Shown here piece by piece: positions 2,611-60,585 of a stretch of 64,000 nt of DNA; within the stretch, counting starts at the first letter, position 1; each line of letters starts with the position of its first letter. Source of the DNA: an uncultured Chthonomonadaceae bacterium (GTDB lineage: Bacteria; Armatimonadota; Chthonomonadetes; Chthonomonadales; Chthonomonadaceae). The notes under the pieces were generated by a model. That model worked only from the letters and a program-made list of their open reading frames with translations, was not told the DNA's origin and ran no database searches. The stretch spans positions 163,449-227,448 of the forward strand of contig CAWIEK010000003.1 in the NCBI GenBank assembly GCA_963835065.1, given 5' to 3'. The translations under genes and the position numbers were made by a program.

Positions 2611-3955
2611 TCAGGGTTTGGCAGGAGCGGGGTGGTCTTGCATTTTTTGCAGCCCGGTTTTCACGCCGTCGAGCAGGGTTGGGCCGAACTGGTCGCCGTA
2701 AAACGACATGACCGCCTCGTATTTGCCCGCTTTGTATTGGGGCGGCGTCAGGGCGTAGGCGAGCCAATCATTGACAAGCGCGACAACAGCAGGCGTTTTG
2801 TAACCGGCCTGCCGCGCCATTGCTTTCGCCGCCAGCCCCACATCGCCCGTTGGTTCGCAGGGAAAGCCTATCAGCAGCAGGTCGCCCACGCGCACAAAAT
2901 TGATCTGCGTTTCCGTCGGCATCAGGGCGTTGACAAGGTCTTTGGACTGCGATATGGACGCGCCCATTTGCGCGGCTGCGAGGAAAAACAGGGCGTTGGG
3001 CTTGCGCGGCGGCAGGGCAACGGTCTGCGTCCACATCGCAAGCGGCATTTCCCCGGCTGTGGCTGCGCCCGCCAATTGCTCCAAAACGCGCTTGCCCATC
3101 CGATGCCCATAGGTGGACACTTTGGCGTCACCCGATGCGACATCATCAACCCCGTTGGGCGAAGCGTCTCCTTCCGCGCCGTTGAGGAACAGGCACACGC
3201 CCGCGCCGTTCGCTTCCCCTTTCGCGCCCGCGCTTTCCACATCCCCGGTCATCACGCCCGGCCAGTCGGCGGATATGTCCATCATTTTATCATCGTACAG
3301 CGTGGGATGCGCGGCGAAGTTGACGATTGCCGCCAGAGGCTTACCATCGGAGATTTGCGTCACTTTCAAGACGGTCAAAGCGGGGTCAACAGTCGGGTCG
3401 CCCCGCCGGTTGCGGTTGGCTCCCGTCGCGTCCTCCGTCTTCACGCCCACAGAAACCGGAACCATACCCTTGACAGCCTGGGCGATGACTTTTGCGATTT
3501 GCGCGGCGGTGAAGTCCAGCAGTTTGGCGTCGAACGGCGTCCAGCCTTTCAGGTTGGTAAACGTGTTGCCCGTGTGCATGGCAAGTGGGTCAGGCGCGGT
3601 ATGCGTGTGCGTTGCCGCCAGAAACAAATGCGCGGCGTCAACGCTCGTTTCCCCGTCCATTTTCAAGTGTTTCAGCGTTTCCGTTTTCACGCTTGCCGGC
3701 ACAAAGCACAAATCCAGCGATACGACAACAACGGTCGCCTTGCCGTCCGAAAGCGCCAATGCCCGCGCATACACCGGGATCATGCACCCCCGTTGCCCGC
3801 GCCGCTTTCCGCGCCGCATACCCGCCGAGTGGAACCGCGTTCGCCTTCACGTCCGGTGTAATGTCCACCTTCGCCGCCCCGCCCCTGAGTTCCGCCCGCG
3901 CCGTGAGGGCAGAGAACACTATCACCACAGAGACACAGAGACACAGAGGGGTCAC
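2611..3955 (-). CDS. Neutral/alkaline ceramidase-like secreted hydrolase, split by a +1 frameshift at about 3776
   Basis: ORF 3638-3955 gives GAAKVDITP..PLGGYAAR..GVHDP; ORF 2611-3819 continues VYARALALSDG..ATHTHTAP..NFAAHPT..FLNGAEGD. Removing one base joins them. Start codon uncertain. Confidence 0.75.
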
Positions 3956-4104
3956 AGAGAGAATACGAGAGGAATCAAAACCAAGCGAAAAAGCCCGGTT
4001 TGTATTGATGTGATTTATTCCCTTTCGTTGTCGCGTTCCCCTCTCTCTCCCCTCTCCCCCGTTTTTCTCTGTGAATCCTCTGTGTCTCTGTGTCTCTGTG
4101 GTGA
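3922..4104. repeat. Fold-back element, (CACAGAGA)n arms
   Basis: 39-bp inverted arms at 3922-3960 and 4066-4104 with 2 mismatches. Confidence 0.9.
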
Positions 4105-4153
4105 AAGTTGTCTTGCATAGTTTTGTTACTCTTCTCGCATGATGTGCAGTTTT

Positions 4154-5161
4154 TTAGCCGACAGTCACTGTTAGCCCTGCTTGCGGCTTGGGAACCAGCA
4201 GGCGTTCCGCGCCCGCTGCGGTCAGGGCCGCGCCGACGGTTTGCGGATCGTGGGTCAGGGCGAGAATGGTTCCGCCGCCGCCTGCGCCTGCCAGTTTCGC
4301 GCCATACGCGCCGGCTGCGCGGGCCGTATTGATAAGATGCTCGTTAGCCGGGCCGGAGCCGCCGAGCGCGGCGACAAGGGCGTGATTTTCATTCATCAAT
4401 GCGCCCAAATCCTGCCAGCGCTGTTCGACAAGGGCGCGTTTGCCCAATCGCGCCAGTTGCGCAATGCGAACGTAACTGTCGCGCACAAGGGTTTCGCCGG
4501 CCAGCCAGCGTTCGCGGGGCGATTTATGGACGGTTCCCGAATGGTGCTGTATGCCCGTGTGCGCAAGAAGCAACGGAGGCGCGTTCAATGCTTCGCCCAT
4601 CCAGAGCGACAGCGGTTCTACGGTGACAAGCGGTTCCTCGTCGCGCTGTTCCAGTTGTTCCTTGCCCGCGCAGTCCATGAAATTCAGGCCACCGAAAACC
4701 GCCATGTGCTGATCCTGCAAGCCGCACACGATGCCCATAACGCGCGATTCGATTTTGCGGGTGGTTTCCGCAAGCGCGTAGCGGTTCAGGTTCAATTGTA
4801 AATACGCATCAAGCGCGCCCACAATCGCCGCCAGCATTGCGGTAGAACCGGCTAATCCCGCCCGCATGGGAATATCGGTTTTCAAATGCAGATGAAAACG
4901 CTGCTGCTGCGGGTCAATCTGAAAGTACGTGAGCGCGGCGCGGGCAATGTCGAGTTTGTCGCCCTGCGCGGCAAAATCCGCCTGTGTTCGTACAATGGCC
5001 TGCTCATCTTCATTGGTCAGAACAAGAGTGTCCGCAGAGGGCGCTAACCGGCACTCCGCCCGCTCCTGCGTAGTGCAGGAAACAACGCAACCCCCGTACA
5101 TATCGGTCGGATTGCCGATCAGCCCACACCGCCCCGGCGCAGTAGCTATGATTTCCGTCAC
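4154..5161 (-). CDS. GHMP-family sugar kinase
   Basis: APGRCGLIGNPTD N-terminus, PMRAGLAGSTA ATP loop, GAKLAGAGGGG motif; AGGAG before GTG. Confidence 0.85.
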   Translation of the reverse strand: MTEIIATAPGRCGLIGNPTDMYGGCVVSCTTQERAECRLAPSADTLVLTNEDEQAIVRTQADFAAQGDKLDIARAALTYFQIDPQQQRFHLHLKTDIPMRAGLAGSTAMLAAIVGALDAYLQLNLNRYALAETTRKIESRVMGIVCGLQDQHMAVFGGLNFMDCAGKEQLEQRDEEPLVTVEPLSLWMGEALNAPPLLLAHTGIQHHSGTVHKSPRERWLAGETLVRDSYVRIAQLARLGKRALVEQRWQDLGALMNENHALVAALGGSGPANEHLINTARAAGAYGAKLAGAGGGGTILALTHDPQTVGAALTAAGAERLLVPKPQAGLTVTVG

Positions 5162-5182
5162 CCGTTGCTCTCCTTACATGCT

Positions 5183-5426
5183 GGTGTTCAGGTATTCGGT
5201 GTTCAGGTGTTGGGTATTGGGCTTCTGTCTTCTGTCTTTTGTCTTATCCCTTACCACTTACCTCTTCATCACTAATTTCGCCAAAACACTGCCGGGTTCC
5301 TACGGGTTTTCATTTCTTTATGCTACAATAACACAACAAGGAATAAGGGATAAGTAGGCATCAGGCATCAGGCATCAGCCGAACACCGAATACCTGAATA
5401 CCTGAATACCGCACACCTGAACACCG
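5183..5426. repeat. Composite fold-back element with (CTGAAYAC)n arms and nested (TCTGTCT)n, CTTATCCCTTA/TAAGGGATAAG and (GGCATCA)3, in a divergent promoter region
   Basis: Arms at 5183-5212 and 5379-5426, each ending next to the RBS of one divergent gene. Confidence 0.8.
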
Positions 5427-5442
5427 AAAGGAATTGACTTAA

Positions 5443-5877
5443 ATGGCGAACCGAACAGCCGTACTGGATACCAACAAAGGCGTAATTCGCTTTGAATTGT
5501 TTGAAGACCTTGCCCCAATTACCACGCAGAACTTCATTGACCTGGCGCAGTCGGGATTTTACACCGGCCTGACGTTTCACCGCTACGAACCTGGCTTTGT
5601 GATTCAGGGCGGCGACCCGACCGGAACCGGCACGGGAAGCTCCAAGCGCACCATCCCGCTGGAAGTCTCGCCCAAACTGAAACACGACGACGCGGGCGCG
5701 GTGGCGATGGCGCGCTCGTCCGACCCCGACAGCGCTTCCTGCCAATTCTACATTACCCTGAAGGCCACGCCGTTTCTGGACGGTAATTATGCCGTGTTCG
5801 GCAAAGTGACCGAAGGACTGGAAGCCGCCCTCGCCCTGCGCAAAGGCGATACCATGAATACGGTTACGATTGAATAG
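5443..5877 (+). CDS. Cyclophilin-type peptidyl-prolyl isomerase
   Basis: [54 protein letters not shown]. Confidence 0.95.
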
Positions 5878-5967
5878 GTGTTCAGGTGTTCGGGTATTCG
5901 GGTGAGAAGTGTTCTCTTGAAAGCTGCATTACCCGAATACCTGAACACCTGAATACCTGAATACCTG
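5875..5967. repeat. Fold-back element, (CTGAAYAC)n arms
   Basis: Left arm starts at the TAG stop (5875-5903); right arm 5931-5967 ends just before AAGGAGG. Confidence 0.85.
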
Positions 5968-5987
5968 CACTTATAAGGAGGCACTCT

Positions 5988-7367: not shown

Positions 7368-7401
7368 GAACGAGAGGGAGCCGCGAATTCTAAAATACTG
7401 C

Positions 7402-7501
7402 TTACCACGGATGAAACGGATGAAACGGATACACACGGATGGAGAAAAACATTTTCGGTATAATCCGTGTTCATCTGTTTCATCCGTTTCATCCGTGGTA
7501 A
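7402..7501. repeat. Fold-back element, (ACGGATGAA)n arms
   Basis: 39-bp inverted arms at 7402-7440 and 7463-7501 with 3 mismatches. Confidence 0.9.
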
Positions 7502-7556
7502 AGCCCCGCTCCCTGTTTGCGCAAATTTGTGGTTTCCTGGAATATGGAGGTTTGAC

Positions 7557-8087: not shown

Positions 8088-8118
8088 TTTTCCTCACCAA
8101 GCGTCCATAAGCGAACAT

Positions 8119-8158
8119 GCCCCTCTCCTGGCCGCTCCTGCGCTGCTAAGAGAGGGGC
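8119..8158. repeat. REP-like hairpin CCCCTCTCC...GAGAGGGG
   Basis: Shares CCCCTCTCCTGGCCGCTC with 16261-16278; related hairpin at 33503-33549. Confidence 0.7.
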
Positions 8159-8260
8159 TTTGCTTTCGTAATAAGCCCTTACAGGGCAAAGGTAGCCGTA
8201 AGCCGGATGAGGGCAGAAGCTCCCGTCACGCATGGTATAATATTCTGAGCAAACTTGACA

Positions 8261-9514: not shown

Positions 9515-9563
9515 CCGGGCAAAACTGTTGTTCCTCACCTGTTCTAATGAAGCGCCAAAGCTC

Positions 9564-9598
9564 ACCCGAACACCTGAACACCGAACACCTGAACACCG
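9564..9598. repeat. Solo (CTGAACAC)n arm immediately before an RBS
   Basis: acccgaacacctgaacaccgaacacctgaacaccg followed by gaggaataaattg. Confidence 0.75.
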
Positions 9599-9614: not shown

Positions 9615-10442
9615 TTGAACAAATCTACTGATATTATCGCTGAGGATCGCGTGGCTGTCCCTGTAGACCAACTCCACGTCCCGGCCAAGCCCGAAACGGA
9701 GCGCCCGCGCAATGGGCGGCATGAATCCATTCCCGTCAAAGACGCCGCCAACGCGGTACAGGCGGCGGAACAGGCCGCGCCCAAACCTGTTTCTTACAGA
9801 GACGTGCGGAGCAATCCGAAAATCCGCGCTTACATTGAAAAAGCCAACGAGCAGATGCTTGTTATTGGCTACAGCGAACACGGCCTGCGCCATGCCGCCC
9901 TGTCCGCCGCCATTGCCCGCAACATCCTGCTGGAACTCGGCATGGAAGCGCGCGCCACCGAACTGGCCGCTATCGCCGGTTACATGCACGACATCGGTAA
10001 CTGCGTCCACCGCATTTATCACCCGCAAATCGGCGCGACGATGGCAATGCAATTGCTCGACCAGATGGGCATGGACGCCCGCGAAATCGGAACGGTTATC
10101 GGCGCTATCGGCAACCACGAGGAACCCGAAGGCGTTCCCATCAACACCATTGCCGCCGCCGTGATTATCGCCGACAAATCCGACGTGCATTTTACCCGCG
10201 TCCAAAATCCCGACCCCACCACTTACGACATCCATGACCGGGTGAACCACGCCGTGCAGAAATCACACATTATGGTTGACCGCGACGCCAAAATCATCAC
10301 GCTTGACCTCATCATTGACGTGACCGAAGCGACCGTCATGGAATACTTTGAGATATTCGTGATCCGCATGAGGCTGTGCCGCCACTCCGCAGAAAAACTC
10401 GGCTGCAAATTCCGCCTCATCATCAACGGCACGGAACTGTAA
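9615..10442 (+). CDS. HD-domain phosphohydrolase
   Basis: EHGLRHA..YMHDIGN..GNHEE..IADKSD; TTG start after GAGGA is inferred. Confidence 0.85.
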   Translation: MNKSTDIIAEDRVAVPVDQLHVPAKPETERPRNGRHESIPVKDAANAVQAAEQAAPKPVSYRDVRSNPKIRAYIEKANEQMLVIGYSEHGLRHAALSAAIARNILLELGMEARATELAAIAGYMHDIGNCVHRIYHPQIGATMAMQLLDQMGMDAREIGTVIGAIGNHEEPEGVPINTIAAAVIIADKSDVHFTRVQNPDPTTYDIHDRVNHAVQKSHIMVDRDAKIITLDLIIDVTEATVMEYFEIFVIRMRLCRHSAEKLGCKFRLIINGTEL

Positions 10443-11133
10443 AAACATTTGAACCGCAAAGGGGCAAAAGAGAGCAAAGAAAAGCAAAGAACGAAGAAAC
10501 AGAAGAACAGGCATGGTAAAGGAGAATGGCGATAATTCCGCTCTACATTCCCACAGGTCCACCGACCTCTTCTTTGTCTTTGTCTTTTCTTTGCCTCCTT
10601 TGCCCCTTTGCGGTTCACGTTTTCGCTGTGTACACGACGCGGTTGATGCCTGATTTCAGGATGGTGACATTGAAGTTGATGAGCAGGCCGAGAGGAAGTT
10701 TGGTGGCTTTCAAGTACGACATCAACTGCGCGGTGTGTATGGGCAGCAGGGTTTCCACGGCTTTCAATTCCACGATCAGGCACTCATCCACGAGCAGATC
10801 AAGCCGCCCCTCGCCTACCTCAACACCTTTGTAGGCTACGCCAACAGGAGCCTGCCGCGCAACCGGAATGCCACGCAGTTGACACTCACGCTCAAGCGCG
10901 TATTCGTACACGCTTTCCAGATAGCCGGGGCCAAGCAATTTATGAACTTCAATCGCCGCTCCGATAACCTCGTGTGAAAGCGCATTGATTTCGTCAGAAG
11001 GTTCCTGCATATTCTTCTCCATGTGTATACTGTTGTTCTCTGCGACTGCGGAACGTAACTCGCCGTGTCTATTCTGCTTTTCTCTTCGTATTTCCTTTGC
11101 TCCCTTTGCCTCTTTGCGGTTCAAATGTTTTTT
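10441..11133. mobile_element. GxxExxY cassette bounded by AAAAACATTTGAACCGCAAAG-(GCAAAG)n inverted arms, with a third internal arm
   Basis: Arms at 10441-10489 (+), 10585-10623 (-) and 11091-11133 (-); the outer two share 21 identical nt; mobility is inferred. Confidence 0.6.
10615..11010 (-). CDS. GxxExxY protein (PD-(D/E)xK nuclease superfamily)
   Basis: AIEVHKLLGPGYLESVYE and RLDLLVDECLIVELKA..AQLMSYLK..GLLINF; GGAG before ATG at 11010. Confidence 0.92.
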   Translation of the reverse strand: MQEPSDEINALSHEVIGAAIEVHKLLGPGYLESVYEYALERECQLRGIPVARQAPVGVAYKGVEVGEGRLDLLVDECLIVELKAVETLLPIHTAQLMSYLKATKLPLGLLINFNVTILKSGINRVVYTAKT

Positions 11134-29333: not shown

Positions 29334-29370
29334 ACGGCAGATAACCCAACTTGTGTCGGCAGCCGTCATG

Positions 29371-29406
29371 CTTAATCATCGAAATCATGAAAAATCATGG
29401 TTCAAA
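29371..29406. repeat. Solo arm, (AATCATGAA)-type, ending GGTTCAAA
   Basis: cttaatcatcgaaatcatgaaaaatcatggttcaaa; same TTTGAACC terminus as the GxxExxY arms. Confidence 0.55.
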
Positions 29407-29511
29407 CGATCTTTGTGCCCCGTTTCACAAACTTGAACCCGTAACGCCGCTTTGTTCGTATTGGAATTTGGTTTCACCATCAAATGACAAATTAACAGGA
29501 GCCGAAACGCC

Positions 29512-31830
29512 ATGACCGATACTCTTTATGCCGCGCCCGAAACGGGTCTTGCCAACCGGGAAGAAGCGCCCAATACGTTCCCGCCTGCTTCCGATGTTCC
29601 CCCTGACGCGCTATTATCCCCGTCTATGGGAAGTGGCGACGCGCAGAACGGGCAGGACGGGCAGGGAATAGCCCTGCGCATCGCCAACATTATCGCGCAG
29701 CGCAAGCCGTACCGGGAGCGCGTACAGCGGCTGCAAGTACAGTTGAACATGCTGGACGGCGCGCTGCGCAATCTGCGCGACTGGATTCCCAACTTGCAAA
29801 ACGAGGAATCGTATGCCCGCATTTCCGCGCTTCCGTTGGACAGCCTGATCAAGCGCATCGGGCAGCAACAGGAAGTTTTAGAAACCCTGCGCGCCCGCTT
29901 TCAGCGCGAAACGCTCAATATCGCCGTTGTCGGGATCGCGCGCATGGGCAAAAGCCGCTTATTGCGCAGCCTGTCGGGACTCAGCCCGGACGTGATTCCC
30001 GACCGGGGCGGCGACCCCTGCACGGGCGTTCGCAGCGCCATTTTCGATCAGCCCGGCAGTGACACGTATGCCGAAATCGAATACCACACGTCCCAATCCC
30101 TGCTCGAAATCCTGTGGGCGTACTGGGACAAGATCAAATTGCCGCTGGCCCGCCCGTACAATCTCGACGCCTTTTTCAGCATTGCTTTACCCGAAGAAGC
30201 GCCCCCCTCCGAACACGCGGCGGAGCATCAGGAACTGCTTAACGAACTGCGCAAGTACCAGCGTATCCGCCCCCTGATAAACCATTTGGGAACCACGCAG
30301 ACGGTGCGCCGCGAAGACATTGCCCGACTGGTCACGCAGCCCGCCAATGAAACGAATGACCCGGAAGCGTACACGTATCTGCTCGTAAAAGAAGCGACCA
30401 TTTACACCCATTTCCCGTATGACAACGTGAGCAAGATCGGCCTGATTGACCTGCCGGGATTGGGCGAAGCGACATTGGGCGGGCCGGAGCGCGTCACCAA
30501 CACCCTGCGCCTGAGCGCGGACGTAGCCCTGTTCGTGCGCCGTCCGACCGCAACCGATTTCGCCAACAAAGACGAGCATTTCAAACTGTACGACGCCTGC
30601 GCCCAGGCCCTGACGCACTATCTTACGCTTGACCGTTGGGCGTTTCTCGTGCTGAACTGCGACCACACGACCGGCCCCGACGCGCTGGAAAAATGCGAGT
30701 CCATTCAGCGCAGCATCAACAAGCCCACGTCGCGCATGAAATTCTTCGGGCAGGCCATTTGCGATTGTTCCGATCAGGAGCAGGTGGAAGAACTGGTGCT
30801 GAAACCCCTGCTGAACACCATTTCGGAAAAAATCGGCGAACTGGATCGGGATTTCGTCCGCGCCTTTGCCCGCGACATTCGGCAATTGCAATTGGATGTG
30901 TCGAGCGCGCTGCACACCGCCCGTATCGAATTGGGAAGCAGCGACGATCTGGAAGACCAACTGTTGCGCGACAACTTCGATACGCTTTGGGACAACCTGA
31001 AAGCCGGGCTGTACGATCTGGTCAACGAACTGGAAATCGCGGGGGATGAGCCGGACGCGCAGTTCAGCGAACTGGTCAACAAAACCATCGCCGAGTTTGA
31101 AAGCGCCCCCAACCTGCCCAAAGTGGAGGATTTGGCGTTTCGGATGCGGGCGGACGGCGGCTATGGCGGCCCGTATGACGAATACCGGCATACGATGCGC
31201 GCCGCGCTTTCCCAACGCCTGCGCAAACTGGACGGCGGCCTGATAAACTCGCTGGACGATGTGAAAAAGCGCGTGGCGGAAGTGTTTTTGGACGAGGGCG
31301 GACTGGGACGACTGGCCGGAAGCGAAGCCACGCTGACGCGCCTGATAGACGCTATTCCCCCTGAGCATCACCGCCTTCGCGCCGAGTTTCAGGAATTACA
31401 GGAGTTTGAAATGTCGGCGCGGGGTATGTTGGGCTACATGCTGCGCACCAAATTGAACAAGCTGGAACCCCTGCGGACGGGGATGCCCAAGCCGGAAGAG
31501 CAGGACGCCGCCCGCATGGCCGCCGACCTGAAGAAACTCGTGGATGAAACGGTACAAAGCATCAAGGACGCGCTGGAAGAAGAAGAATTCCGCAAGCCGA
31601 GCCAGTGCGCGTATGCCATTGTTGCCGACTTCCGCGATGCCGTGATTTTCGGCGACCGGATGAAGGGCGAGTGGTTTAGTTTCTACAAGCGCGAAGACAT
31701 CCGCCTGCAAGTGTGGCCCGACGTGTTCAGCAACCTCATAGACGTGCGCCAGCGCCGCGAAGAATGGCTGGAGCGCGTCCTCGCGGCGGAACGCGCCAAT
31801 GTGCCGGAACTGATGACGTTCGCTGTTTAG
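29512..31830 (+). CDS. Dynamin-like large GTPase
   Basis: G1 GIARMGKS, G2 PCTG, G3 IDLPG, G4-like VLNCD; long helical C-terminal region. Confidence 0.7.
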   Translation: MTDTLYAAPETGLANREEAPNTFPPASDVPPDALLSPSMGSGDAQNGQDGQGIALRIANIIAQRKPYRERVQRLQVQLNMLDGALRNLRDWIPNLQNEESYARISALPLDSLIKRIGQQQEVLETLRARFQRETLNIAVVGIARMGKSRLLRSLSGLSPDVIPDRGGDPCTGVRSAIFDQPGSDTYAEIEYHTSQSLLEILWAYWDKIKLPLARPYNLDAFFSIALPEEAPPSEHAAEHQELLNELRKYQRIRPLINHLGTTQTVRREDIARLVTQPANETNDPEAYTYLLVKEATIYTHFPYDNVSKIGLIDLPGLGEATLGGPERVTNTLRLSADVALFVRRPTATDFANKDEHFKLYDACAQALTHYLTLDRWAFLVLNCDHTTGPDALEKCESIQRSINKPTSRMKFFGQAICDCSDQEQVEELVLKPLLNTISEKIGELDRDFVRAFARDIRQLQLDVSSALHTARIELGSSDDLEDQLLRDNFDTLWDNLKAGLYDLVNELEIAGDEPDAQFSELVNKTIAEFESAPNLPKVEDLAFRMRADGGYGGPYDEYRHTMRAALSQRLRKLDGGLINSLDDVKKRVAEVFLDEGGLGRLAGSEATLTRLIDAIPPEHHRLRAEFQELQEFEMSARGMLGYMLRTKLNKLEPLRTGMPKPEEQDAARMAADLKKLVDETVQSIKDALEEEEFRKPSQCAYAIVADFRDAVIFGDRMKGEWFSFYKREDIRLQVWPDVFSNLIDVRQRREEWLERVLAAERANVPELMTFAV

Positions 31831-31935
31831 GCATTAGGCATTAGGCATTAGGCAGCTCATTGTCGGCTGAAACGTATCGTGTCTTTAGACGACGGTATTC
31901 TGCTGAAACTGCTAATGCCTTAATGCCTAATGCCT
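31828..31935. repeat. Fold-back element, (GGCATTA)n arms
   Basis: Left arm starts at the TAG stop (31828-31854); right arm 31909-31935. Confidence 0.88.
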
Positions 31936-33549: not shown

Positions 33550-33550
33550 T

Positions 33551-34809: not shown

Positions 34810-34900
34810 TAGGGTGTCGGGTGTCGGGTGTCGGGTATAGGAAAAGCCTTGTGCAACTCGCGCATTGTCCTACACCCGACACCCTACCCCCGACACCCTA
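34810..34900. repeat. Fold-back element, (GGGTGTC)n arms
   Basis: 33-bp arms at 34810-34842 and 34868-34900 with 3 mismatches. Confidence 0.88.
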
Positions 34901-36696: not shown

Positions 36697-36749
36697 GCAT
36701 GAAAATACTCCTCCTGTCTCAAGATGAGACAGGAGGAGTATTTTCATGC
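36697..36749. terminator. 25-bp perfect hairpin
   Basis: GCATGAAAATACTCCTCCTGTCTCA-AGA-TGAGACAGGAGGAGTATTTTCATGC. Confidence 0.6.
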
Positions 36750-36990: not shown

Positions 36991-37109
36991 TGCGTAGGAA
37001 AGTTTCAGGTGTCAGGTGTCAGGATAAACTGCTGTTTCGCGCTTACTATTGCGCTATATCAGTATCATCCTGACACCTGACACCTGAAACCTGAAACCTT
37101 CCTTACGCA
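36991..37109. repeat. Fold-back element, (CAGGTGT)n arms
   Basis: Arms at 36991-37025 and 37067-37109; the right arm includes the apt stop codon. Confidence 0.85.
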
Positions 37110-37645: not shown

Positions 37646-37762
37646 AGGCATTCGGCATTAGGCACCAGGCATTGGGAGGCCCGATTGGAACCGAAACTGT
37701 GATAAACCGCTTGAATTCCGAAGCGAAGCACTCTAATGCCTGATGCCTAATGCCGAATGCCT
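37646..37762. repeat. Fold-back element, (GGCATTA)n arms
   Basis: Arms at 37646-37677 and 37731-37762; one arm encodes the mtnA tail GIRH*. Confidence 0.85.
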
Positions 37763-38874: not shown

Positions 38875-38993
38875 AGTAGTCAGTAGCGAGTAGTCAGTAG
38901 TCAGTAAAAACTCGCTACTGATAGCCGTATTACAACCTGCAAGGCTGAGAAACCGGTGTTCTACTGACTACTGACTACTCGCTACTGACTACT
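38875..38993. repeat. Fold-back element, (GTAGTCA)n arms
   Basis: 35-bp arms at 38875-38909 and 38959-38993 with 1 mismatch; spans the mtnP stop to the mtnA RBS. Confidence 0.9.
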
Positions 38994-39952: not shown

Positions 39953-40771
39953 TTATATGCCGGATGCAGACGCGGTAATCAACTGCGCATGCTCTTCCAC
40001 GACAACAGTATCTTCATCAAGCGCGGCATCCAAAGAGACTTCTTCGGATTCCGTGTCTTGTGTTGGTTCCGGGGGGAACAGGCGGGGCAGGTTTTCCAGC
40101 GCGTTGAAGGCGGCGGCTTGTTCGGCTTCCTTCTTGCTTTTGCCCTGCCCGCTGCCGATGATGGTTTCCCCAACGATGGCCTGCGCCACAAACGTTTTGT
40201 CGTGTTCGTGGCCGAGTTCGTCTACGGTGCGGTAAACGGGCGTGAGCCGCAATTGCGCCTGCGTGTGTTCCTGCAAAGAGGATTTGTAGTCGCGGCGGTG
40301 CTGATCGGCGGCGACTTCCTCAATAGCGGGCTGCAGGGCTTTGCGCACCACGCGCCGCGCCGCCACAATGCCGCAGTCCAGATAAATCGCCGCCACAACC
40401 GCCTCGAACGCATCCGACAAAATGGAACGGCGGCGACGCCCGCCCGAAGCCGCTTCACTGGCGCTCATCACCATGAACTCTTCCAGTCCCAATACCTGCG
40501 CGGCATCGGCAAGGGCGGACTCGCTGACGATGTACGCTTTGGATTTGGCAAGGTCGCCCTCGCTGTAATCCGGGAAAATCCGAAACAGGTTTTCGCAAAT
40601 CACCACGCCCACGACGGAATCGCCTAAAAATTCCAGCCGCTCGTTGCTGTCGAAGGCATTATCGCCGGCAGCCGAGCGGTGCGTCAGGGCGCGGCGCAGG
40701 CGCGTGAAATCCTTGAATTCAACGCCAAGACGCTCCTGCAGTCGTATTAAATCCTGTTCGTCCGTAGCCAT
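39953..40771 (-). CDS. rnc: Ribonuclease III
   Basis: ALTHRS..NERLEFLGDSV, SDAFEAVVAAIYLD, dsRBD DYKSSLQE..GKSKKEAEQAAA. Confidence 0.97.
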   Translation of the reverse strand: MATDEQDLIRLQERLGVEFKDFTRLRRALTHRSAAGDNAFDSNERLEFLGDSVVGVVICENLFRIFPDYSEGDLAKSKAYIVSESALADAAQVLGLEEFMVMSASEAASGGRRRRSILSDAFEAVVAAIYLDCGIVAARRVVRKALQPAIEEVAADQHRRDYKSSLQEHTQAQLRLTPVYRTVDELGHEHDKTFVAQAIVGETIIGSGQGKSKKEAEQAAAFNALENLPRLFPPEPTQDTESEEVSLDAALDEDTVVVEEHAQLITASASGI

Positions 40772-47464: not shown

Positions 47465-47521
47465 AGAGCCTCTCCTCATTGACCGGGCACTGAAAGTACC
47501 CGGTCAATGAGGAGAGGCTCT
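47465..47521. terminator. Long hairpin between convergent genes (REP-like core)
   Basis: AGAGCCTCTCCTCATTGACCGGG...CCCGGTCAATGAGGAGAGGCTCT, 23-bp stem. Confidence 0.65.
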
Positions 47522-50108: not shown

Positions 50109-50522
50109 ATGCCACGCATAACAGGAATTCTGGAAACATCGCTGTACGTGGAAGACGTGGAACGCTCCACGCGCTTCTACCAACAGCTCTTTGATTGTGA
50201 AGTGATTTTAGAGGAAGACCGGCTTCACGCCCTGAGCATTGCGGGCCGGGATGTGCTGCTGCTGTTCAAGCGGGGTGGCTCCACGCAGCCAAGCGTATAC
50301 CCCGGCGGCATCATCCCCCCGCACGACGGACGCGGAACGCAGCACATCGCCTTTGCCATCCCGCTCCAGGACCTACAGGCATGGCGCGAACGCCTCAACC
50401 AACTCAACATTCCCCTCGAAAGCGAAGTGCGCCCCGAACTTGGCGGCCACAGTCTCTACTTCCGCGACCCCGACAACCATTGCATCGAACTCGCCACGCC
50501 GGGAATTTGGAAGATATATTGA
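50109..50522 (+). CDS. VOC/glyoxalase-family protein
   Basis: LETSLYVEDVERSTRFY, QHIAFAI, SLYFRDPDNHCIEL. Confidence 0.9.
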   Translation: MPRITGILETSLYVEDVERSTRFYQQLFDCEVILEEDRLHALSIAGRDVLLLFKRGGSTQPSVYPGGIIPPHDGRGTQHIAFAIPLQDLQAWRERLNQLNIPLESEVRPELGGHSLYFRDPDNHCIELATPGIWKIY

Positions 50523-50656
50523 GGGAGAGTAGTCAGAAGTGAGTAGTCAGTAGTCAGTAGAAGTGCCTGTCTACTCAAAGTTTTGTGCAATGGAACCAAC
50601 TTACAAGAGTGAGTTCTACTGGCTACTGACTACTCACTTCTGACTACTCTCCCTCA
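50520..50656. repeat. Fold-back element, (GTAGTCA)n arms, overlapping both convergent stop codons
   Basis: 43-bp arms at 50520-50562 and 50614-50656 with 1 mismatch. Confidence 0.92.
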
Positions 50657-51906: not shown

Positions 51907-52069
51907 TTCACCACAGAGGCACAGAGACACAGAGGTTTCACAGAGAAAAGAAGAAAAGGAGATGGGGAGAAAAGGAGAGATAGGAACCGTTTGGCTCGTG
52001 TCTTTCGCGGTTCCTATCTCTCCATATTCCCTCTGTGAAACCTCTGTGTCTCTGTGCCTCTGTGGTGAA
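51907..52069. repeat. Fold-back element, (CACAGAGA)n arms, with an internal 16-bp hairpin
   Basis: Perfect 39-bp arms at 51907-51945 and 52031-52069; inner GGAGAGATAGGAACCG/CGGTTCCTATCTCTCC. Confidence 0.92.
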
Positions 52070-53006: not shown

Positions 53007-53038
53007 GAACCGCAAAGACGCAAAGCAAGCAAAGAAGT
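53007..53038. repeat. Solo arm of the GAACCGCAAAG family
   Basis: cgaaccgcaaagacgcaaagcaagcaaagaag, between the DUF2283-like gene and the atpG RBS. Confidence 0.7.
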
Positions 53039-54201: not shown

Positions 54202-56535
54202 TTACCTTGTTTTGGTACGCACCGCGGAAAGCAGTTCGTCTACGAGCGCGTTGTTGGCTCCGGTTGGGTCGTTCGGGTAGCGGGCGGCTATGTCTAAGGC
54301 GAAACGGCGGAACTCGTCTAGCGAGACGGCGCGTTTGCCGTTCTTTTCCGACAGGTAGGACGCGCCCACAATGGCGGAACAGTCGGCTCCGAATTGCGCG
54401 GTCATCAGGCTTTGCTGATTGTTCTGGATGCAGGACACCATGTTCAGGATTTCGCCGTAAAACGAGGACGGCCAGTGCTGCCAGTTGGAGCCGGATGCGC
54501 GGAACCGGCGCGTTTCCTGCCCCTTGATGTCGCACACCACCGCGAAACGCTTGCCGTCTTCCTGCGCCATTTTGATGCTGCCGGTTGTGCCGATGTACGC
54601 GGTATCCGGCGAGTCCTGTTCGCTCCACGAGCCTTCTACGTGCGCGGTTGTCCAGGCGTTGGTTTTGGCGTCCTCGAAACGGATCAGAATATGGGCGTCG
54701 TCGTCAACCGTAATGTGCTGGTACTTGCCGTCAATGATGCGGTCGGGCATACGGATGCTCATGCCGAACGGCGCGGCGGCTTTTACAAGCGTGGGCGTTT
54801 TATCTAATCCGGCAATGAACCACGCCGCGCCGATGGCATGGATGCCGTTGTCAAGTAACGCGCCACCGCCGCCAAAGTCGGAATTCCAAAAGCGCGGGTT
54901 GCCTTCCGGCCCGCCGTGCGCCTGCGTCAGAAACATCATCGTCAGTTCGCCGATAGCGCCCGCGTCCACCAGTTTCTTGACCGTGTAATAGTCCGGTTCG
55001 AACAGCCAGTTTTCGTTGTGCTGGTAAAACTTGCCCGTCCGCTCAATGGTTTGTATCAACTGCTGCGATTCCAGCCAACTGCGCGAAATCGGCTTTTCGC
55101 ACATCACATGAAACCCGGCCTCCAATGCCTCAATCGCAAGCGGCGTATGCAGCAGGGGTTGGGTGCAAATGTCCACCAGGTCGGGCTTGATGATTTCAAT
55201 CACTTCGCTGATGTCGTCGCACAACTGAATGGTTTCCAGATCGGTTTCCAGGCGCTCGGCAGCCAGAATATCCCCGGCTTCCAATGCCTGATGGATTTTG
55301 GCTTCCATCAGCGTCTGGTACTTTTTGTACGCCAGGTCCAGCGCGGTTTTGTCCGGGTCGCACAGCGCTACAAGCTGCGCCTGCGCAATGTCCGGGTAGC
55401 AGGGCAGATGCGCCCCGCGAAAAATGTTGCCTGTGCCGATGGCGGCCACGCGAACGCGCGGAGCGGTTTCCATGCGTGAAGACTCCTGAGAGATTTTCGA
55501 TTGACGATTTTCGATTTTCGATTGTAGGGGCTGGATTTTCGATTGTGGCGGTTGGATTTCCGATTGACGATTTTCGATTGACGATTGCTGCTCTTCGGCT
55601 AACGCTTGCGTCTCGTCGCTGACAGAGGGCGTATTCTCGCTGCTCGCTTGCGGGCTTTCGATTGTGACGGGCGGCAGTTCGGCGACATCGCTTTTACCGT
55701 TATCCGGCGCGGCGTTGGGAGGAGCGTTTGCTAAATCCGGCGCGGCGGGATGAGGCGGTGTGTTTACCGCTTCCGTTGTGGCGGGTTGCGGCAGCAAAGG
55801 CTGCGGGTGGGGCGCGTCGGCAGGCGACTCTTCCAGTTCAAGGTAATTGGCGCGGGCAGGGGGCAACTGCGGCAGGGGCGTGGTTCCTCCCGTCAATCCG
55901 AGATGCTGTTCCAGTTGAGCAAGCATCTGTTCGGCGCTTGCGTCGCTGTCAAGCGCAGGCTTTGCGTCTCCCTGTTCCCTGTAACCTGTAACCTGTAACC
56001 TGTCCCCTATTCCCTGCATCCCACGTGACCCGATGATTTCTTCCCGCGCCTGCGCTTCCCGCGTCAAATTGGCGATTTTGCTGCTGGCGCGTTCCCACAG
56101 GCTGTCGGCCTCGGTTTCCAACGCCCCGGACGCATGGGCTTCCACCTGCGCGGCGGTATAGCGGGTATAACGCGCCTGCACCTCGTTGATGGTGCGCAGA
56201 AGGGTGGCTTCGTCTTCGGGCAGGCTGATTTTGGCGGCTTCGGCTTCCGCTTCCGCCTGTGTTCGCAGGACGCGCGTCCGCTCCAACTCTTCGCCAAGCC
56301 GGGTCAGTTCCTGCCGTATCTGCTCCACCAGCCCCGTATTCTGCGCCCGCTCCGCCAGCCCGGAACCCCGTTCCAGTTCGGCAATGCGCTTTTCCAGCCG
56401 GGTTTCGTCCTCCTGAAGCTGGCTGCGGCGCATCACGCGCAAAACGACGCTCTCGCGCAGTTGGCGCAAGGCGTCGCGTAATTCGGCTACCTGCTCACGA
56501 AGCATCTCTTGTGGGTTTTGGCCGGGTTCGGGCAT
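54202..56535 (-). CDS. PspA/IM30-like coiled coil, Pro-rich linker and Gfo/Idh/MocA oxidoreductase in one frame
   Basis: CAGGAG-ATG at 56535; helical N-terminal ~210 aa; oxidoreductase from METAPRVRVAAIGTG, with HVMCEKP and GGGALLDNGIH; internal CAGGAG-ATG at 55473. Confidence 0.75.
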   Translation of the reverse strand: MPEPGQNPQEMLREQVAELRDALRQLRESVVLRVMRRSQLQEDETRLEKRIAELERGSGLAERAQNTGLVEQIRQELTRLGEELERTRVLRTQAEAEAEAAKISLPEDEATLLRTINEVQARYTRYTAAQVEAHASGALETEADSLWERASSKIANLTREAQAREEIIGSRGMQGIGDRLQVTGYREQGDAKPALDSDASAEQMLAQLEQHLGLTGGTTPLPQLPPARANYLELEESPADAPHPQPLLPQPATTEAVNTPPHPAAPDLANAPPNAAPDNGKSDVAELPPVTIESPQASSENTPSVSDETQALAEEQQSSIENRQSEIQPPQSKIQPLQSKIENRQSKISQESSRMETAPRVRVAAIGTGNIFRGAHLPCYPDIAQAQLVALCDPDKTALDLAYKKYQTLMEAKIHQALEAGDILAAERLETDLETIQLCDDISEVIEIIKPDLVDICTQPLLHTPLAIEALEAGFHVMCEKPISRSWLESQQLIQTIERTGKFYQHNENWLFEPDYYTVKKLVDAGAIGELTMMFLTQAHGGPEGNPRFWNSDFGGGGALLDNGIHAIGAAWFIAGLDKTPTLVKAAAPFGMSIRMPDRIIDGKYQHITVDDDAHILIRFEDAKTNAWTTAHVEGSWSEQDSPDTAYIGTTGSIKMAQEDGKRFAVVCDIKGQETRRFRASGSNWQHWPSSFYGEILNMVSCIQNNQQSLMTAQFGADCSAIVGASYLSEKNGKRAVSLDEFRRFALDIAARYPNDPTGANNALVDELLSAVRTKTR
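55492..55586. repeat. In-frame solo (AATCGAA/AATCGTC)n array
   Basis: Encodes SIENRQSEIQPPQSKIQPLQSKIENRQSKI. Confidence 0.8.
55971..56016. repeat. In-frame solo (CCTGTAA)n array
   Basis: Encodes QGIGDRLQVTGYREQG. Confidence 0.7.
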
Positions 56536-56552
56536 GGTTGCTCCTGCGGAGC

Positions 56553-56671
56553 AGGCATTAGGCATTAGGCATTAGGCATTAGGAAAATCCACAGAGACGT
56601 GGTACGACATGATGAACGAACAACACGTATTGGCTTTCCTAATGCCTAATGCCTAATGCCTAATGCCTGCC
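56553..56671. mobile_element. Fold-back element with (GGCATTA)4 arms, copy 1 (MITE-like)
   Basis: 118/119 identical to the reverse complement of 60467-60585. Confidence 0.85.
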
Positions 56672-58375
56672 CTACGGCTTAAACTGCGCCTTAAACGCGG
56701 TGATGGCTTTCACGAGCGCGTCTTCCGTGTCTTTGTCCAGGTCTTTGGTGCGGCCCAGTTTTTCCATGATGTCGGGGTAGCTTTCCGCCATGAAGGGGTG
56801 GAACTGCTCCTCGAACTTGCGCACGGACGCGACGGGAATATCATCCAGAAAGCCGTTGTTGCCGGCGTAGATAATCGTTACCTGCTGCTCAACGGGCATC
56901 GGGTGGTTTGCCGGCTGCTTCAGCACTTCCACCAGGCGCATGCCGCGCTCCAACTGGTCGCGGGTCGCTTTGTCAAGGTCGGACGCGAACTGCGAGAACG
57001 CCTGCACTTCGCGGAACTGCGCCAATTGCAGGCGCATGTTGCCGCCCACTTTGCTGCCCTTCATCGCCGATACCTGCGCGGAACGGCCTACGCGGGAAAC
57101 CGAAATGCCGACGTTGATGGCGGGGCGAACGCCCGAATAAAACAGGTCGGGTTCCAGGAATATCTGGCCGTCCGTAATGGAAATCACGTTGGTCGGGATA
57201 TACGCGGACACGTCGGACGCCTGCGTTTCGATGATGGGAAGCGCGGTCAGGCTGCCGCCCGTGCCGGGAAGCATACGGATTTCCAGATCGCCCGCGTTGG
57301 GCAGGGCCGCAAGGTCTTTTTTGGCATGGTCGCGGCCTTCGCCGCTCTGGTAGATTTGTCCGTTGACGCCGGTTTTCGTGCCGCCCTCGGCGGTCTTGTC
57401 CACGATGATGTAATCTTCGCGCATTTTGGCGGCGCGTTCCAGCAGGCGGCTGTGGATATAAAACACGTCGCCCGGATACGCTTCGCGTCCCGGCGGGCGG
57501 CGCAGCAGGAGCGATACCTGCCGATACGCAACCGCGTGTTTGGAAAGGTCATCATACACGACAAGCGCGTGCTGTCCCTTGTCGCGGAAGTATTCGCCCA
57601 GTGTCGCGCCCGTATAGGGCGCGATATATTGCAGGGGCGCGGGGTCGGCGGCGGTTGCGGCCACGATGATGGTGTAATCCAGCGCGCCCGCTTCTTCCAG
57701 AATGTTGCGCACGTTTTGAATCGTGGTCGCTTTCTGGCCGATGGCAACGTAGATACAAACCACGTCGCCGCCCTTCTGGTTGATGATCGTATCCAGCGCG
57801 ACGGCGGTTTTGCCGATGCCGCGATCTCCGATAATCAACTCGCGCTGTCCGCGTCCGATGGGAACAAGCGCGTCAACCGCTTTCAATCCGGTTTGCAGCG
57901 GCTGCTTCACGGGCTGGCGGTCCACAACGCCCGGCGCTCCGGCTTCCACAAACGCGGTTTGCGTCGTGATAATCGGGCCTTTGCCGTCCAGAGGATCGCC
58001 GACAGCATTGATAAGCCGGCCCAGCATCGCTTCGCCAACGGGAACTTCGATGATTTTCCCGGTGCGGCGAACGGTCGTGCCTTCCTTGATCTGCTCGTCC
58101 GCGCCCAGAATGATGGTTCCGACGTTGTCTTCTTCCAGGTTCAGGGCGAGCGCGCGGATGGTAGCGCCGTTTTCATCCACAATGACGTTGTTGTTGACGT
58201 CCACGAACTCCAGCAGTTCCGACACCATGCAGTCTTTCAAGCCGTACACGCGGGCGATACCGTCGCCGACTTGCAGCACGGTTCCCACGCCCACTTCGGC
58301 AAGCTGGTCGCGCTTGTTGTACGTTTCCAGCTCCCGCTCTAAAATCGAAGTTATTTCTTCCGGGCGAATAGCCAT
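56672..58375 (-). CDS. atpA: ATP synthase alpha subunit (567 aa, with insertions)
   Basis: [57 protein letters not shown]. Confidence 0.98.
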
Positions 58376-58428
58376 AATCGAGTAGCCTTTTCCTGTTGTA
58401 TGCGCAATATCAGCGCTGCTGCTAAAAC

Positions 58429-59067
58429 CTACTTCAGCTTGTAGGATTTCAGAATCCCGGTGACTTCAAACGCGCCGATTTTAGCGTACTGCTTGACAAG
58501 CCCGACATTGGGCGCAAACCAGTAGTCGTTGGGCGCGTTCAGCGTTTGCCCCTGCGCCATGATGACCAGGGCGCTGTGGACTTTCATCGCTGAGAAGGTT
58601 CCCGCCGGCGTTTTGATGGAGGTCGGACCGGAAACCGTCAGGGTAGACGTGCCTTTAGAAACGACGCCATTGGCGGTGATGTTACCCTTCCATGTCCAGG
58701 TGGTTCCGGCTTTCATCGGGTACTTGATGATGGGCAAGCCGGGTGCAATAGTTCCCGAACCGCCCTGCCCCGAAGACAGGCGAGTCACGTCCGTCGGCGT
58801 GGTTCGATAGGTTTCTACCTGTATGTTGTTGCCCGCCATCGTGTAGCCGAGTGTGGCGACGGAACCGCCTTTGTCAGCCTTGACATCGGTGACGGTAATC
58901 GTCTGGTCAAAGGTTTTGTTCTGAACGGTGGTTGACAGTACCCAGGTAGAGCCTTGCTTGAGCGGCCAGTAACTGACCGGGGTGGCAGGCTCCGCGCCCA
59001 GGCGCGTCCCGGTCAGCAGCAAGGCAACGGCTCCGAAGGCAAAGCATTTTTGTTGTATGGTTTTCAT
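58429..59067 (-). CDS. Secreted beta-rich hypothetical protein inside the atp operon
   Basis: Signal peptide; [30 protein letters not shown]. Confidence 0.75.
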
Positions 59068-59109
59068 TTGCGCGGTGTCCTTTAGTCGCCATTCAGGTTG
59101 GCTGTGGCG

Positions 59110-59661
59110 TTAGGCTTCCAGCAGCAATTGTTCGCGCAGGCGTTCCAGTGTGCCGCGAACGCTGCCGTCAATAATAGTGTCCTGCATACGCACGACAACC
59201 CCGCCCAAGATTTCGGGGTCAATGCTGGTAATCAACTGCACATGCGAACCCGTGCGCTGTTCCAGGCTGCGAATCAAATCCGTTTGCTCGTCGGGCGTGG
59301 GCATAACGGCAAAGGTGGCTTCGGCGCGAACCAGATGCCGCGCCAGGTCGGCAAGTTCCCGAATTTCCCGTTCCACGCCCGTCAGAACTTCCTCGCGCCG
59401 CTTGTCAATCAGCAGATGCAGGAACGAAAGCGTGAGTTTGTCTACAGAGTTGCCCAGCGTCTTCTGGATAATGTCGCGCTTGCGGCTGGCGGGAATCAGC
59501 GGGCTATGCCACAAGTCGTTCAAAGCGGGCATTTGCCGCATCAAGTCCATGACGTTGTGAACGTCTTTTTCCACTTGGTCCAGGCTGCCGGCCTTTTGCG
59601 CGGCCTCGAACAAAGCGGTGGCGTAGCGCTTGGCGGCGCGAATATCGTGTCCTCCAGCCAT
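59110..59661 (-). CDS. atpH: ATP synthase delta subunit
   Basis: AAKRYATALF, IDPEILGGVVVRMQDTIIDGSVRGTL. Confidence 0.95.
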   Translation of the reverse strand: MAGGHDIRAAKRYATALFEAAQKAGSLDQVEKDVHNVMDLMRQMPALNDLWHSPLIPASRKRDIIQKTLGNSVDKLTLSFLHLLIDKRREEVLTGVEREIRELADLARHLVRAEATFAVMPTPDEQTDLIRSLEQRTGSHVQLITSIDPEILGGVVVRMQDTIIDGSVRGTLERLREQLLLEA

Positions 59662-59663
59662 AG

Positions 59664-60446
59664 TTACGCTCCCTCCTGTCCGCTCGGCGCGTTAAACGTG
59701 TTGAAGCCGGGGAACGCGGTGTCTTCCGTCGCGCTTGTGCCGGGCGTGGGCGTTCCGAACGACATGGCTCCGGGCGTTATCGGTGACGGCTGGCTGGTGA
59801 CGGGTGGCTGGTGTCCGGCGTCTACAGGCTGGCTTGCGGCAAGGGTAGGCGCAACGGGCGCGGCGAGCGTGACAACCGTATCGGCAATCGCGGTATTTTG
59901 ACCGTTGCCTTGCGCAGCCACGTCTCCACTCTCTCTGTGCGCAACCTGCCCGATAAAGTTGCGGATAAGTTGGCGCTGTACCTGATCGTTGTTCTGCGTA
60001 CGAATCGCCTGCTCCGCCGCGTCCAGCGTGATTTGAACCATTTGCTGACGCAGGAGGATACGCTGCCGGGTACGTTCCCGGCCAATCTCTTCTTCGCCCC
60101 TGCGCTGCACAAGGCGGGCAGTGTCGTTGGCTTCCGCAATGATGTCGGCGCGGGCATTGTCGGCGTCGCGCACGGCAGCGCCGATACGTTCGCGCTGCTC
60201 CTGCTCGATGCCGCCGATGCGGTTGGAGTAGTCGTTGCGCAGCTGCGCGATGTCGCGCAACTGGCGGTCAACCTGCAGCGTGTCGGTTTCGATGCGCGTA
60301 GCGCGCTCGTTCAGCATGCCTTTCGCGCCCGGAAGCGCGAAGCGATACAGCAGCAAGACCAACAAAACCAGGCCGACAATCGTTGCCAGCAGGTCTTTAG
60401 GATGCTCTACGAACCAGGGGCCAAAACCAAAAGGATGTGCGAACAC
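59664..60446 (-). CDS. atpF: ATP synthase b subunit with a Pro/Thr/Ala-rich C-terminal extension
   Basis: GGAG before GTG at 60446; TM helix, LNERATRIE, coiled coil, QRQLIRNFI; operon position. Confidence 0.85.
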   Translation of the reverse strand: MFAHPFGFGPWFVEHPKDLLATIVGLVLLVLLLYRFALPGAKGMLNERATRIETDTLQVDRQLRDIAQLRNDYSNRIGGIEQEQRERIGAAVRDADNARADIIAEANDTARLVQRRGEEEIGRERTRQRILLRQQMVQITLDAAEQAIRTQNNDQVQRQLIRNFIGQVAHRESGDVAAQGNGQNTAIADTVVTLAAPVAPTLAASQPVDAGHQPPVTSQPSPITPGAMSFGTPTPGTSATEDTAFPGFNTFNAPSGQEGA

Positions 60447-60466
60447 GATGGAAACTCCATCTGAGA

Positions 60467-60585
60467 GGCAGGCATTAGGCATTAGGCATTAGGCATTAGG
60501 AAAGCCAATACGTGTTGTTCGTTCATCATGTCGTACAACGTCTCTGTGGATTTTCCTAATGCCTAATGCCTAATGCCTAATGCCT
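60467..60585. mobile_element. Fold-back element with (GGCATTA)4 arms, copy 2, inverted relative to copy 1
   Basis: Completes the TAG of the upstream b' gene and ends just before the atpF RBS. Confidence 0.85.

Follow-up and report, generated by a model that had tools for sequence, protein, structure and literature searches.

The cyanobacterial short tandemly repeated repetitive sequences (STRRs) are grouped with the heptamer arrays of the TAACTGA type, and the REPINs and RAYT genes represent small inverted-repeat elements with larger, gene-bearing relatives. As far as the accessible portions of the reports go, TAACTGA repeats occur as heptamers before start codons and inside open reading frames (ORFs) in Beggiatoaceae, cyanobacteria and Bacteroidetes (PMC4679880), and the heptamers of Xanthomonas (GGGAATC) and Nostoc form inverted pairs near stop codons, with no function assigned to them (PMC4692102). 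The intervening sequence (IVS) of the Coxiella 23S rRNA gene resides in helix 45, contains an S23p ORF preceded by tandem GACAGAT/GACAGAA heptamers and is excised by RNase III; its origin and function are called unclear in the available part of that account (PMC4990558). Here, we describe a family of hairpin elements with tandem-repeat arms in an uncultured Chthonomonadaceae bacterium, starting from a window (the whole stretch of 64,000 nucleotides that was analysed, G000:C3:163449-227448) of its 8.0 Mb assembly. The family is real and mobile, is not one of MITEs (miniature transposable elements with inverted repeats) by the features tested, and behaves like intervening sequences that extend over the whole genome. 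Its hairpins lack genes and are likely selfish kin of those 23S rRNA IVSs that encode a protein, and they probably spread by copying and replacement at the DNA level, not by classical transposition.

The present genome (G000, 92% complete) was compared with 2.4 Mb of a sister species of the same genus (G002, 80% complete; its genes are 82% identical, and 64% identical at four-fold sites) and with 0.4 Mb of a third species (G001). Genes in G000 were called by a custom hexamer-model script, some starts and ORFs possibly being wrong, and tRNA calls with introns were set aside as spurious. In the 8.0 Mb, Tandem Repeats Finder detects 2667 arrays with a period of 7, 795 with a period of 8 and 726 with a period of 9; a Markov simulation of 2 Mb contains only 1, 2 and 17, respectively. 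An inverted-repeat scan reveals 1285 pairs within 1.5 kb, of which 799 are tandem-armed, compared with 0 in 1 Mb of simulated DNA. The non-overlapping short elements amount to 691, divided into 575 of class A, with words of 7-8 nt, and 116 of class B, with words of 8-10 nt and in many cases an ACCAC-like head, some of them double-counted owing to duplicated contig segments. Near-identical segments are found on the contig pairs C25/C37, C27/C29, C26/C62 and C43/C69, possibly due to strain mixture or assembly redundancy. Long apparent spacers around housekeeping genes are pairings of neighbouring elements and were not counted as cargo.

A hallmark of the family is its polarity: each element consists of a purine-rich word array (5'), a loop and a pyrimidine-rich array (3'), with arms of 21-43 bp (5th-95th percentile) and spacers of mostly 10-150 nt. 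As originally predicted, interchangeable units occupy one shared architecture; 41 kinds of words recur in at least three elements, and unit number differs between the arms of an element. Word orientation is fixed (AGGCATT in 104/104 cases, AGTAGTC in 72/72), with a single exception among the 45 commonest words, and the purine-then-pyrimidine order is seen in 811 pairs (445 matched, 366 unmatched) versus 9 reversed ones. Arrays outside the called elements behave alike: 300 of the 5' type against 16 follow stops, and 160 of the 3' type against 13 precede starts. Because the polarity rule extends to unmatched arms, many 'solo arms' are mosaics. Whole-element copies are present at loci with unrelated flanks, nested composites are duplicated as whole units, and a single spacer family is found with different arms; at an orthologous GxxExxY cassette (C19 against L104), one arm alone belongs to another family. 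Arms and loops are exchanged separately. In 353 of 505 heptamer elements the 5' word contains a stop, and selection of heptamers for stops in all frames was dropped as a general explanation on this count.

The genes enclosed by longer elements connect the family to the IVSs. All three four-helix-bundle genes (23S-IVS-type, PF05635) of G000 and all three of its GxxExxY genes lie between such arms, which are unmatched at one of the six; long class A elements carry the former and long class B elements the latter, both kinds of cargo having been guessed in the original prediction. The S23p/four-helix-bundle ORF in the loop that marks an IVS is thereby present in three non-rRNA cassettes. In four relatives, 11 of 15 cargo loci are enclosed by arms, the four misses including partial or broken genes. 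Distant four-helix-bundle genes are found in inverted arms in 58 of 72 cases from six or more phyla and in 39 of 70 from metagenomes (8 and 10 of 80 rows with short flanks being left out), as opposed to 4 of 298 control genes. Words containing T also segregate by four-helix-bundle subfamily (44/46 versus 7/64), the two protein sets being drawn from different collections. Among 150 genomes of the same phylum, whose kin are not independent and in which the flanking arms of hits were not read, all 24 with at least 10 copies of one class B motif carry GxxExxY, whereas none of the 95 GxxExxY-negative genomes is motif-rich or exceeds 5 copies. PF05635 is present in 73 of the 150, among them 8 of 8 genomes with AGTYAG arrays. 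This co-occurrence of genes and words suggests a dedicated, putative mobilising system.

The GxxExxY protein of the window matches PF13366 (E 1e-40), a family listed as of unknown function in the accessible text of PMC3424549; 7747 of 7998 scored candidates are its homologues, and D71, E81, K83, Q95 and Y99 are invariant among 120 sequences. A search of solved structures with its sequence gave no match. The predicted structure (predicted local distance difference test score, pLDDT, 93.8) has Cas4, lambda exonuclease and a type IIG restriction enzyme as nearest folds, none clearly closest, and the Holliday-junction resolvase Hjc is one of many tied matches (Z 6.3). By this model, GxxExxY has a PD-(D/E)xK, restriction-endonuclease-like fold with an intact D-E-K motif and is a putative nuclease. 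The four-helix-bundle proteins match XCC0516, which is described as a homopentamer in the available part of PMC4990558, and weakly match the bAvd-like family (E 2e-5, 5e-4). In the portion of PMC3936711 available, 23S_rRNA_IVP genes are noted between cas genes.

Several further gene-and-arm arrangements were observed. Class B arms surround small gene pairs at G000:C50:144714-146101, C59:31857-33380, C70:4867-5649 and C2:32084-33325, which by eye are toxin-antitoxin- or nucleotidyltransferase-like (weak HicB match), plus a PhyH gene; this is either capture or chance pairing. In G001, one GxxExxY gene is in two parts (L114/L115, G001:C2:2993794-2995406), interrupted by an insertion-sequence (IS)-like segment of ~1.3 kb. 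Non-tandem hairpins of the CCTCTCC type, a family with at least 20 genomic BLAST matches, lie at window 47465-47521 and 8117-8155, the first of them being absent in G002. Arms related to theirs surround a gene for a DUF559 endonuclease (G000:C49:487163-488008), which may represent a third class of genes with arms.

The elements are positioned precisely with respect to genes. Of 725 stop-side ends, 470 are no more than 10 nt away from a stop codon (null about 0.12), and 259 of 665 overlap one. Downstream of the 3' arm, 247 of 325 cases show an SD-like (Shine-Dalgarno-like) core, at a median distance of 6 nt; such a core also separates the stop from the arm in 67 of 149 class A elements, versus 91 of 1232 controls. 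The predicted adjacency to stop and SD holds as a majority rule: 9 of 14 window elements are at or overlap a stop, whereas those listed at 3922, 7402 and 34810 start 34-45 nt away. Divergent gaps are shunned (20/566 elements versus 602/3838 in the background), and in wide co-oriented gaps 130 of 244 elements hug the stop versus 40 expected. tRNA genes are abutted by seven elements, five of which lie between two tRNA genes. As predicted, no target-site duplication is apparent: the lengths of direct repeats equal those of permuted flanks (688 elements), and none is seen at the 99% identical pair in the atp operon. Where SD-like cores flank a class A element on either side, they may represent a variable short duplication; stop and SD overlap in several empty alleles. 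A model in which insertion copies the host flanks in inverted form was not adopted, the excess being only weak, e.g., 0.47 versus 0.38 two bases out.

Comparison with the relatives revealed both empty and overwritten slots. At 625 orthologous junctions, G000 has 168 elements and G002 has 106; 86 are occupied in both versus 28 expected, i.e., 81% of the G002 elements reside in slots that are also filled in G000. The same word is found at only 12 of these 86 slots, while the class is retained at 83 (59 when permuted), and the offset from the stop is kept within 3 nt at 44 of 94. The empty sites anticipated in the original prediction exist as well: 50 G000 elements face no repeat in G002 (gap of at most 60 nt in 25), a few of these slots being decayed remnants or doubtful orthologues, and empty alleles are 3-15-nt gaps or a tetraloop. 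In the 0.4 Mb read of G001, the density is ~10 elements per Mb. Where the word differs, at 44 shared class A slots, the alignment of the two spacers scores like that of random pairs (median 6 versus 6) and not like that of neutrally simulated descendants (15), which implies that the element was replaced whole and rules out, for class A, the gradual divergence of one inherited element; an earlier control with ordinary gaps was confounded by regulatory sites. Steering of class A replacement by word similarity was not significant (p = 0.13).

Besides this replacement in place, the original prediction had missed copies in rRNA genes and, in frame, in proteins. Both 23S copies of G000 contain three insertions each. 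One lies in the loop after model position 1218, in the hairpin Rfam 1206-1226, which we take from the E. coli map to be helix 45; the helix tip is built from AGTAGTC in G000, AGGGATT in G002 and AGGGAGT in G001. The others, two in 23S and one in 16S, are at different helices: near Rfam 1893-1900, 131 nt replace an 8-nt model segment that is a GTAA loop in G002, and a 16S helix tip holds a word-built element with other words in G002. The rRNA copies carry no gene; the gene-bearing copies lie between protein genes. The two 16S copies (G000:C37:1-1700, C51:119500-119610) differ at one and the same helix tip, with a word-built insertion in one and a short collapsed form in the other, and at one 23S site, an AACAGGG element in G000 and a tetraloop in G002, the third species has an unrelated, non-repetitive long hairpin (L058, G001:C2:1458520-1458877). 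In proteins, 286 in-frame array clusters occur in 251 of the 4932 predicted genes of G000, including glmS and metG, whose reading frames are open. Sense words within genes are predominantly stop-free (465 versus 34 with stops), adjacent pairs keep their order in 142/142 cases with unmatched arms in 126/142, and 63 of 79 comparable sites hold an array in G002. The frame is kept at 63/79 sites, which is the control-window rate in that assembly (188/224), and at 7/7 sites compared with G001. We infer that these arrays are translated as protein inserts; splicing is disfavoured by the stop-free words and the retained frame.

Folded as RNA, nine window elements reach z-scores of -7 to -13.6, with 0/200 shuffles folding as well. 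Mismatches within the stems are not biased towards G-U on the transcribed strand (143 G-U versus 168 A-C), and folding is equally good for sense and antisense (202 versus 200), so that no selection on sense-strand RNA structure is seen. This argues against selection on an mRNA signal, the processing or stability role proposed in the original prediction, and fits a DNA-level process, as do the presence of both orientations and the lack of target-site duplication. The elements could spread in the following manner: A cassette protein would recognize its own words, and a nick or break would arise at a resident hairpin or at the purine-rich stop/SD junction. The break would be repaired by copying another element via short shared sequence. 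For class B, GxxExxY is the putative nuclease; for class A, the four-helix-bundle pentamer is a putative binding factor that would need host enzymes. Only insertions that spare the stop, the SD, the reading frame or the rRNA fold would then survive selection, and in transcripts RNase III, whose gene (rnc) is located at window 39953-40771 (-), may cut the perfect stems. Copy-and-replace recombination among selfish IVS-type elements, with the cassette proteins as its likely initiators or guides, is the reading we favour, and we regard it as evenly poised between holding and failing. On a wider view, put forward tentatively and leaning towards doubt, these elements would form an undescribed, widespread mobile class in which homing into sites occupied by rivals is driven by tiny non-transposase proteins, either the putative GxxExxY nuclease or a four-helix-bundle pentamer that reads four to five words in tandem; slots in operons, proteins and rRNA would persist while their content is overwritten, and this one system would have given rise to protein-encoding 23S IVSs, bacterial heptamer repeats and many low-complexity protein inserts alike.

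A number of observations weigh against the copy-and-replace reading. The commonest words (AGGCATT/AGTTGAT in G000, ACGAGAT/AGGTTGTT in G002) have no gene-bearing cassette among those found, spacers have no homology to cargo coding sequence among the matches listed, and of the 55 genomes with GxxExxY, 31 contain the one motif tested in fewer than 10 copies. Wide convergent gaps (n=24) lack stop enrichment (8 versus 8.2), and within class A, old and new words are no more alike than when permuted. Related spacers lean to one transcriptional sense (68 versus 32 non-independent pairs), which is unexpected from a purely DNA process. Moreover, slots could be filled independently at a limited set of tolerant sites, and the co-occurrence and word-subfamily linkage could be plain co-inheritance, the genomes including kin.

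Spread by host processes alone is an unlikely alternative: long inverted repeats would break or stall replication, gene conversion and template switching from other copies would fill the site, and the small genes would be passengers for which the arms serve as a cassette for expression or release. Related spacers indeed cluster locally (17 pairs within 20 kb versus 2 expected, some explained by tandem segment duplications), the atp pair resembles conversion between nearby same-word elements, junctions are ragged without target-site duplication and abundant words lack a matching gene; by itself, however, this leaves unexplained why class B motif-rich genomes all bear GxxExxY, why words are tied to protein subfamilies at 50-70% protein identity and how words with just 3-4 common bases replace each other. 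A route via RNA, modelled on diversity-generating retroelements minus mutagenesis, appears quite improbable. Here, RNase III would free the hairpin RNA, an Avd-like pentamer would pass it to a host reverse transcriptase (RT), and the cDNA would integrate at short homologies. The weak bAvd-like matches, the near confinement to transcribed gaps, the sense bias of spacers and the two RT genes and rnc in the genome are consistent with it, but neither RT adjoins a four-helix-bundle gene, sense-strand structure shows no bias, inverted copies exist and the GxxExxY class is left unaccounted for. An RT followed by an ORF that is Cas1-like by eye is inserted in a ribosomal protein operon region (G000:C49:679223-683817). 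Similarly a long shot, the hairpins could be host-selected RNA signals, RNase III sites or stabilizers tuning operon output, in which function keeps the slot while the sequence turns over. The shared slots, the long, stable stems and the many elements in core operons and tRNA arrays would agree with this; the absence of G-U bias and of a sense-strand stability advantage, the many slots empty in the sister species, the low density in G001 and the mostly unmatched arms in proteins would not, and the origin of the elements is left unexplained. Local polymerase slippage in ordinary terminators, suggested by the varying unit number and cited in the available part of PMC4692102 as a cause of heptamer excess, is hardly credible, given that a U-tract (at least 5 T in 8 nt; mean 2.1) follows only 17 of 437 elements, by which intrinsic terminators were rejected, that polarity is fixed and that the empty alleles and the identical words, heads, spacers and whole elements at unrelated loci already contradict it, in line with the dispersed mobile family of the original prediction.

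Within the window (Table 1), all listed paired elements are present at, or a few bases off, the predicted positions, with three adjustments. The fold-back predicted at 5183 has its arrays, which form two mosaic half-elements around a divergent gap; the arm at 10441 exists as the end of a gene-bearing cassette; and the supposed pair 56553/60467 is two complete elements in opposite orientation with unrelated flanks. The supposed solo intergenic arms at 55492 and 55971 lie in frame within a 777-aa ORF (54202-56535, -) inside the atp operon after atpA, which is a single ORF in G002, too. It comprises an N-terminal region without Pfam match and a Gfo/Idh/MocA oxidoreductase, with an internal SD and ATG after the second array, and may be two genes fused or one with two starts. 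The class B element at 7402 has many whole-length relatives in G001 and G002. A perfect 25-bp hairpin with a 3-nt loop (36697-36749) is a single genome copy, and an Rfam scan of the window found no family reaching its gathering score.

Table 1. Elements, arrays and cargo gene in the window (strand in brackets where assigned)
Feature	Position	Words and structure	Context and relatives
Class B element	3913..4113	CACAGAGA/CACAGAGG words, ACCAC head; arms 3913-3963, 4063-4113	
Mosaic half-element	5183..5245 (-)	AAGACAG-type array 5222-5245; pyrimidine-rich CTGAACAC array 5183-5211	Precedes start of GHMP-kinase-like gene
Mosaic half-element	5356..5428 (+)	AGGCATC array, then CTGAAYAC array	Before cyclophilin gene; other words in sister species
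Class A element	5876..5967	AGGTGTTC	Overlaps TAG stop of cyclophilin gene, SD next; 25-nt gap without element in G002
Class B element	7402..7501	ACGGATGAA; words are arms of G001 GxxExxY cassette (L113)	ACAGTAG element in G002
Solo pyrimidine-rich (3'-type) arm	9563..9598 (+)		Before SD and HD-domain gene
Gene-bearing class B cassette	10441..11132 (692 bp)	GCAAAG words; outer pair of arms, 10441-10490 and 11083-11132; additional arm (10577-10617) at stop of cargo gene	Missing at orthologous G002 junction
GxxExxY gene (131 aa)	10615..11010 (-)	TIGR04256, PF13366; predicted PD-(D/E)xK fold	
Solo arm	29366..29407 (+)	Rarer CATGATT-type family	
Class A element	31827..31935	AGGCATT; spacer similar to five-member spacer cluster	Fills convergent gap; overlaps left TAG stop
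Class A element	34810..34900	GGGTGTC	
Class A element	36996..37103	CAGGTGT/CAGGTTT	Abuts apt stop
Class A element	37646..37762	AGGCATT/AGGCATC	Arm supplies final codons and stop of upstream mtnA-like gene
Class A element	38875..38993	AGTAGTC; arm word of four-helix-bundle cassette G000:C8:31942-32399	Overlaps stop
Class A element	50520..50656	AGTAGTC	Between convergent genes, both stops overlapped; AAGTAGAT element in G002
Class B element	51907..52069	CACAGAG words	After atpG; same family in G002, AAATGAACGC element in G001
Solo arm	53007..53037 (+)	GCAAAG type	Upstream of atpG start
In-frame array	55492..55587 (-)	AAAATCG words, IENRQSKI-like peptide	Linker of ORF 54202-56535; other words in G002
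In-frame purine-rich array	55970..56016 (-)	ACAGGTT/AACAGGG words	ORF 54202-56535; related yet different words in G002
Class A element	56551..56670	AGGCATT	After atpA; AGGGAGT in G002, GTTGTTT in G001
Inverted copy of 56551 element	60467..60585	99% identical	Between two atpF-type genes, overlaps TAG stop; AGGGAGT element in G002

The family joins the excess of intergenic heptamers, the origin and mobility of 23S IVSs and the function of PF05635 and GxxExxY, two very large families of small proteins, in one testable system with named candidate enzymes and substrates, and it offers a source of the recurring 15-50-residue inserts in ~5% of the predicted G000 proteins. The pieces are published separately, and the quantified slot replacement is a new addition; no paper joining heptamer repeats, 23S IVSs and both protein families was found in a search that most subscription papers and all supplements lay outside.

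With MITEs, as the available part of PMC10969869 describes them, the elements share being small, non-autonomous, intergenic inverted repeats with larger gene-bearing relatives; they have terminal inverted repeats and are shorter than 500 bp. In contrast to MITEs and REPINs, and in agreement with the original prediction, they lack target-site duplications, no armed cassette seen contains a transposase and the enclosed genes are neither DDE nor HUH transposases; the termini are tandem words of more than 40 kinds, whose arms are exchanged independently. The arm-enclosed genes are PF05635 and PF13366, and no termini shared with a transposase-bearing IS were seen, IS ends not being surveyed exhaustively; no HUH tyrosine transposase was found among genes enclosed by arms within 1.5 kb, no genome-wide RAYT search being made. 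An RT adjacent to Avd, as in diversity-generating retroelements, is not found, neither of the two RTs being beside a four-helix-bundle gene. Rickettsia palindromic elements likewise insert in frame into unrelated genes, but in the portion of PMC10969869 available they form ~150-bp families with a conserved peptide, whereas the inserts here, compared by description, are modular word arrays in 251 predicted genes that are swapped between sister species.

TAACTGA repeats resemble the 3' arms in being pyrimidine-rich heptamer arrays just 5' of start codons, some of them in frame in ORFs (INYQLS-like peptides) and with stops in all frames of one orientation; they are presented as direct repeats and possible regulator sites, and a paired purine-rich arm or cassette genes are not described in the accessible text (PMC4679880). 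In the accessible part of PMC4692102, the Xanthomonas/Nostoc repeats share arrays of about four units, convergent inverted pairs, a G-rich strand within 50 bp after stops and avoidance of divergent gaps. They differ in having one word per genome, a G-quadruplex reading (most words here lack G-tracts) and 83% conservation in place between two species, and that account, as far as available, contains no cargo gene, mosaic arms or replacement.

Of the systems described, the 23S rRNA IVS is the closest analogue, closer than the STRRs named in the original prediction. It differs in that the present family has no genes in its rRNA copies, carries its genes in copies between protein genes, has hundreds of copies outside rRNA and includes a second cargo class, GxxExxY. 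Common to both are the long terminal stem in place of a helix loop, at a site that is presumably of the helix-45 type here, too, and a cargo of the same family (PF05635, XCC0516 pentamer). GACAGAA, as given in the available part of the Coxiella account, is a rotation of the AAGACAG word found here.

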